A stretch of 64,000 nt of DNA, from assembly GCA_951406725.2 (NCBI GenBank), contig OX597829.1, positions 5,766,001-5,830,000 of the forward strand. The letters are read 5' to 3'. This DNA comes from Octopus vulgaris. Lineage: Eukaryota. Positions within the stretch are counted from its first letter, which is position 1, and every line of letters starts with the position of its first letter. Made by a program: the position numbers and the translations under genes. The notes beneath the pieces were generated by a model that was not told the DNA's origin, searched no databases, and saw only the letters and a list, made by a program, of their open reading frames with translations. Below are positions 2,456 to 47,124 of the stretch, one piece after another.

Positions 2456-2963
2456 ATATATGCACACATACATATGTACGTACGAAAAAGTACGCGTATT
2501 CATGTGTATACAGGTTTGTGTTCCTCCCTAAGAAACGCACTGAGACACATACACTATATACACACTCCAGAACACAAGCAAGTACACAACACGTATGATG
2601 TATGCATCCATATATGTATAATTTATATATGTATGGATGTAGGTGAGCAAATATGTTACGTTTAAGTATGTAGGTACATATATATATTATATATATATAA
2701 TTATATATATATGTATATATATACATGTATATATATGTATATATATGTATATGTATATATATATATGTATATATATGTATATATATGTATACATATGTAT
2801 AGGTATTTATATATATATATATATACACATATATATATATAATTAGTGAATGGAAGAAATGGAGTTGAACGAAGATTGTACAGAAAATTCTGTAACAAGA
2901 AAATTCATCTTTCCATTTCAACAAACATATATATACATACATATATATACACACAAACATATA

Positions 2964-22221: not shown

Positions 22222-22228
22222 ACCCCAC

Positions 22229-22625
22229 GAGTGGCTGTGTGGTAAGTAGCTTGCTAACCAACCACATGGTTGCGGGTTCAGTCCCACTGCGTGGAATCTT
22301 GGGCAAGTGTCTTCTGCTATAGCCCCGGGCCGACTAATGCCTTGTGAGTGGATTTGGTAGACGGAAACTGAAAAAGCCTGTCGTATATATGTATATATAT
22401 ACATGTGTGTGTGTGTTTGTGTGTCTGTGTATGTCCCCCTAGCATTGTTTGACAACCGATGCTGGTGTGTTTATGTCCCCGTTACCTAGCGGTTCGGCAA
22501 AAGAGACCGATAGAATAAGTACTGGGCTTACAAAAGAATAAGTCCCGGGGTCGAGCTGCTCGATTAAAGGCGGTGCTCCAGCATGGCCGCAGTCATATGA
22601 CTGAAACAAGTAAAAGAGTAAAAGA

Positions 22626-22626: not shown

Positions 22627-22676
<50 letters not shown>

Positions 22677-22858
22677 AGTAGGTGAATGAATTATCCTAGC
22701 ATGGAAAATTCGATTAACCGATACCTAGGTAGCAAATTCACGTCAGAAAACACGGTTGAAGCGACCTGTCAAGGGCAGAAACTCCGGGTTCTTGTGTGGA
22801 AATTTGTGTGTTTTTTATACATGAAAAAATGGAGTCGAACGAAGATTTTAACAAAATT

Positions 22859-22953
22859 CCTTTACTCTCGACACATGTTTCGAAGACGGCATACTTTTAA
22901 TTCCGAAGGAATAAAAGGTGCATTATGCCATCTTCTCATCAGGAAAGATAAGG
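22859..22953 (-). ncRNA. Type I hammerhead ribozyme (left-arm mirror copy)
   Basis: Reverse complement of the 23080-23174 motif; core tcatcag at 22936-42 and gacacatgtttc at 22870-81. Confidence 0.85.
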
Positions 22954-23079
22954 AGCCTCTTTCAGCCACAAGAAAAACAAAAGTTTTTGATGATTGCCTA
23001 CATGGTGACCACAGTGATAAGTGGTCACCATGTAGGCAATCATCAAAAACTTTTGTTCGTCTTGTGGCTGAAAGAGGGT

Positions 23080-23174
23080 CCTTATCTTTCCTGATGAGAA
23101 GATGGCATAATGCACCCTTTATTCCTTCGGAATTAAAAGTATGCCGTCTTCGAAACATGTGTCGAGAGTAAAGG
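23080..23174 (+). ncRNA. Type I hammerhead ribozyme (right arm)
   Basis: CTGATGA 23091-97; 12 bp stem II GAAGATGGCATA/TATGCCGTCTTC; GAAA 23152-55; self-complementary ACATGTGT; GUC ending at 23163; stem I CTTTC/GAGAG. Confidence 0.88.
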
Positions 23175-23214
23175 AATTTTGTCAAAATTTTCGTTCGACT
23201 CCATTCTTTCATTT

Positions 23215-23255
<41 letters not shown>

Positions 23256-24014: not shown

Positions 24015-24346
24015 TACTCTTTTACTCTTTTACCCGGGACTTATTCTTTTGTAAGCCCAGTACTTATTCTATCGGTCTCTTTTGCCGAACCGCTAAGTAA
24101 CAGGGACATAAACACACCAGCATCGGTTAGGGACAAACACACTCACACAAACACACACACGCATATATATATATACATATATACGACGGGCATCTTTCAG
24201 TTTCCGTCTACCAAATCCACTCACAAGGCTTTGGTCGGCCCTAGGCTATAGTAGAAGACACCTGCCCAAGGTTCCACGCAGTGGGACTGAACCCGGAACC
24301 ATGTGGTTGGTTAGCAAGCTACTTACCACACAGCCACTCCTGCGCC
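24015..24346 (-). mobile_element. SINE family A, internally deleted copy
   Basis: Reverse complement of the family A head and body; ends ...cagccactcctgcgcc. Confidence 0.9.
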
Positions 24347-46987: not shown

Positions 46988-47052
<65 letters not shown>

Positions 47053-47124
47053 GGATGAATGAATTATCCTTTGTTTACCGTTAACATGGAAAACTTCAAT
47101 AAACAGTTACCACGGTTATTTACT

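Follow-up and report, generated by a model that had tools for sequence, protein, structure and literature searches.

How did two hammerhead ribozymes come to lie on opposite arms of a palindrome, and do they do anything there? The palindrome is found in a window of 64,000 nucleotides of the Octopus vulgaris genome (assembly GCA_951406725.2, contig OX597829.1, positions 5,766,001 to 5,830,000 of the forward strand), whose numbering is used throughout. A first-pass annotation, made from the letters alone, had described it as a young palindrome carrying two intact hammerheads, left by the folding back of a Penelope-like element (PLE) end. The palindrome is a real feature, and it is ordinary PLE debris. 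It is, with high probability, a truncated back-to-back insertion of a Hydra-like PLE in (TA)n that likely arose through twin priming on a single uncut RNA. The hammerheads are predicted to be inactive passengers.

The two arms (22821-23012 and 23021-23212) are each 192 nt long, 96% complementary, and separated by 8 nt. The arm length of about 190 bp and the spacing proposed at first are thus borne out, while the mismatches number seven and not about six. The extent first given, 22821-23220, was too small: the minus-strand copy continues to about 22674, and the whole insertion (22674-23223) is asymmetric, with a tail on one copy only. The features are as follows.

2836-2890, minus strand: short-end fragment from the same family, next to (TA)n; older and separate; 82% identical over 55 nt
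22630-22673, no strand: (TA)n target microsatellite on the left flank, read from the sequence
22674-23020, minus strand: copy of the PLE 3' region with the long end (L), spanning reference 2516-2869, 93.8% identical to the natural copy L032
22674-22815, minus strand: tail of about 142-145 nt between the short and long ends, overlooked at first
22858-22954, minus strand: type I hammerhead with its core at 22942 and a self-complementary helix III; cut predicted after 22870
23013-23020, minus strand: the "loop", made up of the L copy's first 8 nt; the same letters precede the arm in longer copies
23021-23223, plus strand: short-end (S) copy, reference about 2524-2725, 95% identical to L032
23079-23175, plus strand: type I hammerhead by core letters and helices, predicted cut after 23163
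within it: helix I of 5+5 bp in two parts; core, 23091-23097; helix II, 23098-23109 with 23140-23151; GAAA, 23152-23155; helix III octamer, 23155-23162
23220-23250, no strand: (TA)n target microsatellite on the right flank, read from the sequence

Both outer ends of the insertion adjoin (TA)n, with AT microhomology at each. The loop has the length once ascribed to it, but its letters are element sequence and it is no spacer. The fragment of the outer end that had been noticed near 2850-2890 is present at 2836-2890, and is separate from the palindrome insertion. A long-end fragment of an older subfamily also lies beside (TA)n on the minus strand, at about 47049-47090.

That the palindrome might be an assembly or chimeric-read artefact is hardly credible. 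Among the listed contigs from four sequencing runs, none bridged the junction, the matches being swamped by copies of the neighboring SINE and of the family, which points neither way. Against an artefact, of the seven differences between the arms, three are private to each arm and one is ambiguous; derived letters are thus found on both arms, which points to decay after insertion and not to a chimeric read. The outer ends are moreover the family's two fixed ends placed in (TA)n, and this anatomy recurs at many other loci. With the rate cited for O. bimaculoides in PMC13282606, 0.0036 substitutions per site per Myr, the insertion would be about 5 Myr old (range 2-11) if that rate applies. The first reading was right that the arms are of recent origin.

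The palindrome is the 3' end of a very common Penelope-like family, as had been suspected. The family end 20-mer matches 4,158 places in the genome with one mismatch allowed, and the ribozyme 26-mer has 442 exact matches, with reversed controls giving 0 in both cases; one arm used as query returns 1,512 candidates in its own genome. The search for a full-length parent that had been suggested uncovered a coding parent with a single ORF for reverse transcriptase (RT) plus a GIY-YIG nuclease at the C-terminus, with ORFs of up to 785 aa in natural copies, but no uninterrupted start-to-stop copy among the family copies examined. The matches to Pfam RVT_1 (E 0.054) and GIY-YIG (E 0.024) are weak and below the cut-off; there are 217 protein homologs at E<=1e-30, and a PDB sequence search gave nothing meaningful. 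The longest open frame, of 785 aa (L067, 3155-5509), has an Asn/Ser-rich linker where CxCx5C is expected, and a second low-complexity stretch after the RT thumb. Near another family insertion, at a distance of about 2 kb, an ORF encodes a C2H2 zinc-finger array (L080, 6948-8000, minus strand).

In partial tandems (L064, L076, and L075), this end region recurs upstream, before the ORF start, as a pseudo-LTR (pLTR), in which the hammerhead sits, and in such tandem copies the tail continues into the ORF start. One unit (L064, 1899-6635, contig C12) contains an inverted long-end copy, a pLTR with upstream motifs, a full but broken ORF, and after it a short end followed by a further inverted short-end copy. 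A transcript of this type would carry the stretch between the inferred start and the short end twice, once at either terminus, and these repeats could support a retrovirus-like strand transfer by which the pLTR is regenerated.

Translations of natural copies contain the DKT motif, along with CxxC and CxH flanking a conserved E and N, and RxRWL occupies the place matching the N-terminal RWK motif in L076. The C-terminal endonuclease (EN) is without CCHH, having one Cys and no CxxC inside the GIY-YIG core. No in-frame CxCx5C linker motif occurs in the 40 family copies that span the linker, one out-of-frame look-alike being found in L037; a stretch of about 145 aa rich in Asn and Ser replaces it. 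The best 60 of 150 listed homologs include 23 that are full-length, and 22 of these have the motif. Since CxCx5C is missing from the family, we file the parent element as Hydra-like by its motifs, and not as a strict Hydra member. A Naiad identity was first suspected from the RT motif, but Naiad elements are defined by an N-terminal EN and by having no canonical hammerhead, and it was rejected on finding the EN C-terminal and a hammerhead present. A non-LTR retrozyme was rejected for the head-to-head pair and its continuity with a coding parent, and a MITE or foldback DNA transposon for the two unequal ends and for junctions that differ at each locus.

The family has two fixed 3' ends, short (2725) and long (2869), separated by a tail of 139-155 nt. 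To see how they combine, 210 loci (L081-L290) were scored from three pattern searches; these are the first-listed places on contigs C1-C5, a non-random sample, in which one-mismatch searches gave exact matches first. After de-duplication, and with pairs that reached a locus edge left out, the set comprised 111 divergent pairs and 86 singles. Three pairs had an eroded end, leaving 108 that could be classified, and 106 of these join one short and one long end (p=4e-29 against independence): a 5'-truncated copy in inverted orientation, the tail being confined to one end. By sample the counts are 45/46, 39/40, and 22/22, only the first two samples being able to show all end classes. ORF-bearing inverted units also obey this rule, and the sample contains 11 other near-perfect palindromes with two hammerheads. 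The two exceptions are a short+short pair (L160, contig C4) and a long+long pair (L232, contig C1), itself a near-perfect palindrome that may be a true fold-back.

Could the octopus palindrome have arisen by fold-back as well, as originally proposed? The cDNA begun at the long site would then have folded into a hairpin at its 3' end and served as its own template, before TA microhomology at the short site linked it to the other target end. At this locus just 8 nt separates the two 5' ends, the overlap of the arms is nearly complete, and AT microhomology is present at both insertion ends, as expected from such an event; pairs across the family are also enriched for shared 5' ends. However, fold-back is unable to yield the 28 of 106 pairs in which the long copy lies wholly in the tail, with no overlap with its short partner, nor can it account for the short copy extending further 5' in 58 of 106. 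If the cDNA were copied to its end, long+long pairs would be expected, yet only one of the 108 is of that class, and short-end singles do occur (32 of the 83 singles with enough flank). The pairing rule together with the 28 non-overlapping pairs favors twin priming over fold-back, which is not supported as the family mechanism and is improbable for this palindrome.

Twin priming calls for one RNA per pair, and the 5' ends bear on this point, within the few nucleotides of uncertainty of BLAST-defined ends. Among overlapping pairs, 18 of 71 have 5' ends within 12 nt of each other (permutation mean 4.5). Outside a hot spot for 5' ends the figure is 13 of 65 (mean 3.7; reached by 3 of 10,000 shuffles), and paired copies stop at the hot spot or pass it together (6/15/2, p=3e-4). 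These shared 5' ends within pairs point to one common RNA. The idea that each pLTR contributes one copy per pair was rejected, both copies passing the start hot spot in 15 pairs.

The hot spot itself lies at reference 2512-2518. In the two samples not selected on the ribozyme, it holds 11 of the 56 5' ends at risk versus 3.1% per 7 nt, for an interval picked after seeing the data; over all samples it holds 21 of 111, and the next interval upstream 0 of 90. The commonest position is the A in a TCATT motif (TCATT in 106/122 copies), 40 nt downstream of TGACGTCA (in 103/122 copies); "initiator" and "CRE" are labels that would suit these motifs. No consistent extra G was seen by eye at hot-spot 5' ends. 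Reading these motifs, the hot spot is likely a transcription start. A TATA-like word is present in only 55 of 122 copies, and the pile-up could instead result from RT stalling at the A/T run just upstream. The L copy of the palindrome begins 1 nt inside the hot spot, so it carries none of the upstream promoter-like motifs; the stub also has no ORF. There is no pile-up of 5' ends at the ribozyme cut (4/116 against a 3.1% baseline, p=0.49). The two 7-nt intervals just past the cut contain 5/120 and 7/127 ends, slightly above baseline, and a minor fraction of cleaved and trimmed templates is possible.

As for the target, (TA)3 or (AT)3 is found within 12 nt of 266 of 301 family ends, for a background of 8-16%, and the family thus inserts in (TA)n even though the CxCx5C linker is missing.

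From the observed family membership, RT and GIY-YIG parent, fixed 3' ends, pairing rule, target, and truncation pattern, a series of events can be proposed. The nuclease would nick both target strands; RT would be primed by one strand at the short site and by its partner at the long site, these being two AU-rich sites on the same uncut RNA. Both cDNAs would run toward the RNA 5' end, here stopping 1 and about 9 nt short of the likely start, and the second RT would have to displace the first cDNA before repair joins the two head to head. In vitro work on an anole PLE, as described in PMC11167929, provides several of these steps: both strands are nicked and extended, two start sites bound the tail, and unprocessed RNA is used. 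In that system the strands showed no difference in start site, with no strand-site coupling reported in the source. Taken to the family level, the proposal is that a paired enzyme primes both (TA)n strands at two fixed sites of the same uncleaved RNA, strictly one strand per site, that the ribozyme spares the RNAs that are inserted, and that (TA)n is targeted via the nuclease and AU microhomology without CxCx5C. We lean toward this full version, though only slightly.

What then of the ribozymes? Each arm contains the CUGAUGA core (23091 on the plus strand, 22942 on the minus), a 12-bp helix II, GAAA, and GUC, and the type I core segments C3-A9, G12-A15.1, and U16.1-H17 are present in both, along with helices I and II. 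The 12-bp stem II, the GUC site, and cuts after 23163 (+) and 22870 (-) are as the first reading had them. This assignment is based on core letters and helices; Rfam is silent, with no hammerhead match at the gathering score or at E<=10, and its generic miRNA-hairpin matches were rejected for falling below their own thresholds. The core is intact in 160 of 200 family copies. The helix pairs are mostly kept in 87-99% of the 200, three positions being lower (24%, 65%, and 70%). The helix II position 23104/23145, a G-C pair in this subfamily, is paired in 48 of 200 copies. Helix III varies mainly between two self-complementary octamers (106/200 and 54/200).

Whether they would work is another matter. 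Helix III has only 2-3 bp, and as a monomer the A15.1-U16.1 pair forms with a folding probability of about 0.01, while the self-complementary octamer gives a self-duplex of -6.0 kcal/mol. An octamer of this type needs a second copy of the same sense, so "intact" does not mean active: the hammerheads called intact do have their core and helices I and II, but activity is not implied with a helix III this short. Such hammerheads are described as needing a second copy by Cervera and De la Pena (PMC4209133), in whose account a single minimal PLE motif showed no cleavage. Read-through RNA at this locus would zip into a 192-bp hairpin with one sense ribozyme only, whose helix III would need a second sense copy. 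The full palindrome has a predicted fold of -328 kcal/mol versus about -30 for one arm, and the helix II probability drops to about 1e-43 in the whole insertion RNA. The competition between long hairpin and ribozyme that had been anticipated is thus upheld by the folding model, in which the hairpin wins on either strand, and both hammerheads are predicted to be inactive passengers.

The hairpin might itself be useful, as the suggestion of an ADAR or Dicer substrate implied: a functional or co-opted palindrome would yield long dsRNA upon transcription, either edited by ADAR or processed to small RNAs that silence the family. RNA editing is high in coleoids, a near-perfect 192-bp hairpin is predicted on both strands, and by extrapolation hundreds of such loci probably exist. 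However, the stub has no promoter-like motif, no host exon was recognized by eye among the window's 201 long frames, and each arm has about three private changes, as for neutral decay. Among rare changes in 200 copies there are 37 A>G versus 40 T>C, hence no A>G excess and no ADAR footprint in the retrocopies. A function of this kind seems quite unlikely; read-through of the locus would produce dsRNA just as with any other inverted repeat. The insertion is also bracketed by two inverted copies of an abundant SINE-like repeat (22226-22549 and 24033-24342, in blocks 88-98% complementary), and read-through RNA across this pair would fold into a nested hairpin of greater size.

Taken alone the locus is ordinary, and the modest interest comes from the family-level evidence on mechanism. 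With thousands of copies and a tail long enough for unambiguous end scoring, the family leads to three testable statements: each insertion event has one short plus one long end, inserted templates are not cut at the ribozyme, and (TA)n targeting goes on without the linker proposed to mediate it. If they are true, the genomic copies of this family document how PLEs insert. Among the PLE features already published are truncated copies in inverted orientation and hammerhead pairs on opposite strands; the pairing rule, the start pile-up, the missing pile-up at the cut, and (TA)n insertion without the linker are new at the family level. The short+long count and a description of the family were not found in the literature searched; older PLE reviews and Repbase may have them.

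A familiar precedent for twin priming is the 5' inversion of L1, in which both target strands prime on one RNA and leave an inverted junction, the two parts having no overlap and the second primer site being free. Unlike in L1, both priming sites are fixed in the octopus family and the copies usually overlap.

Among PLEs, the closest known counterparts are in the Hydra clade (including Hydra-1_Obim and Penelope-13_HM) as described by Craig et al. (2021; PMC8557442), who list as open problems how tandem and inverted structures form and why there is a microsatellite bias, and who call the function of PLE hammerheads unclear. The family shares with the clade an RT with a C-terminal GIY-YIG without CCHH, the DKT, CxxC..E, and CxH motifs, a hammerhead near the 3' end, a near-palindromic helix III, and (TA)n targets. 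Penelope-13_HM is described there with an inverted 5'-truncated copy and hammerheads on both strands. In contrast to the clade in that account, the family is without CxCx5C, has RWL instead of RWK, and has a helix II of 12 bp compared with 3-7 bp in the listed Hydra hammerheads; by eye, its hammerhead and N-terminus also differ from those of Hydra-1_Obim.

Penelope of Drosophila virilis and Poseidon of Anolis carolinensis share features of the architecture, as presented in PMC2377424 and PMC11167929: a pseudo-LTR formed by partial tandems, inverted terminal copies, a hammerhead upstream of the ORF start, and an optional tail between two RT start sites. This tail is 30-40 bp there and 139-155 nt here. 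The D. virilis promoter is given as internal and TATA-less (PMC2377424), whereas the family has conserved motifs upstream of its inferred start. In Schistosoma mansoni, truncated PLEs with opposite-strand hammerhead pairs about 100-700 bp apart (PMC4209133) resemble the locus, although the hammerheads described are minimal and those of the family combine a two-part helix I with a helix III that is short and of the canonical type. Finally, non-LTR retrozymes carry a type I hammerhead related to PLE pLTRs, but according to the preprint (bioRxiv 10.64898/2026.07.22.740005) they are non-coding head-to-tail tandems, whereas the locus is head-to-head with a coding parent. The family is of a known kind, set apart by a long tail and a lost CxCx5C linker.
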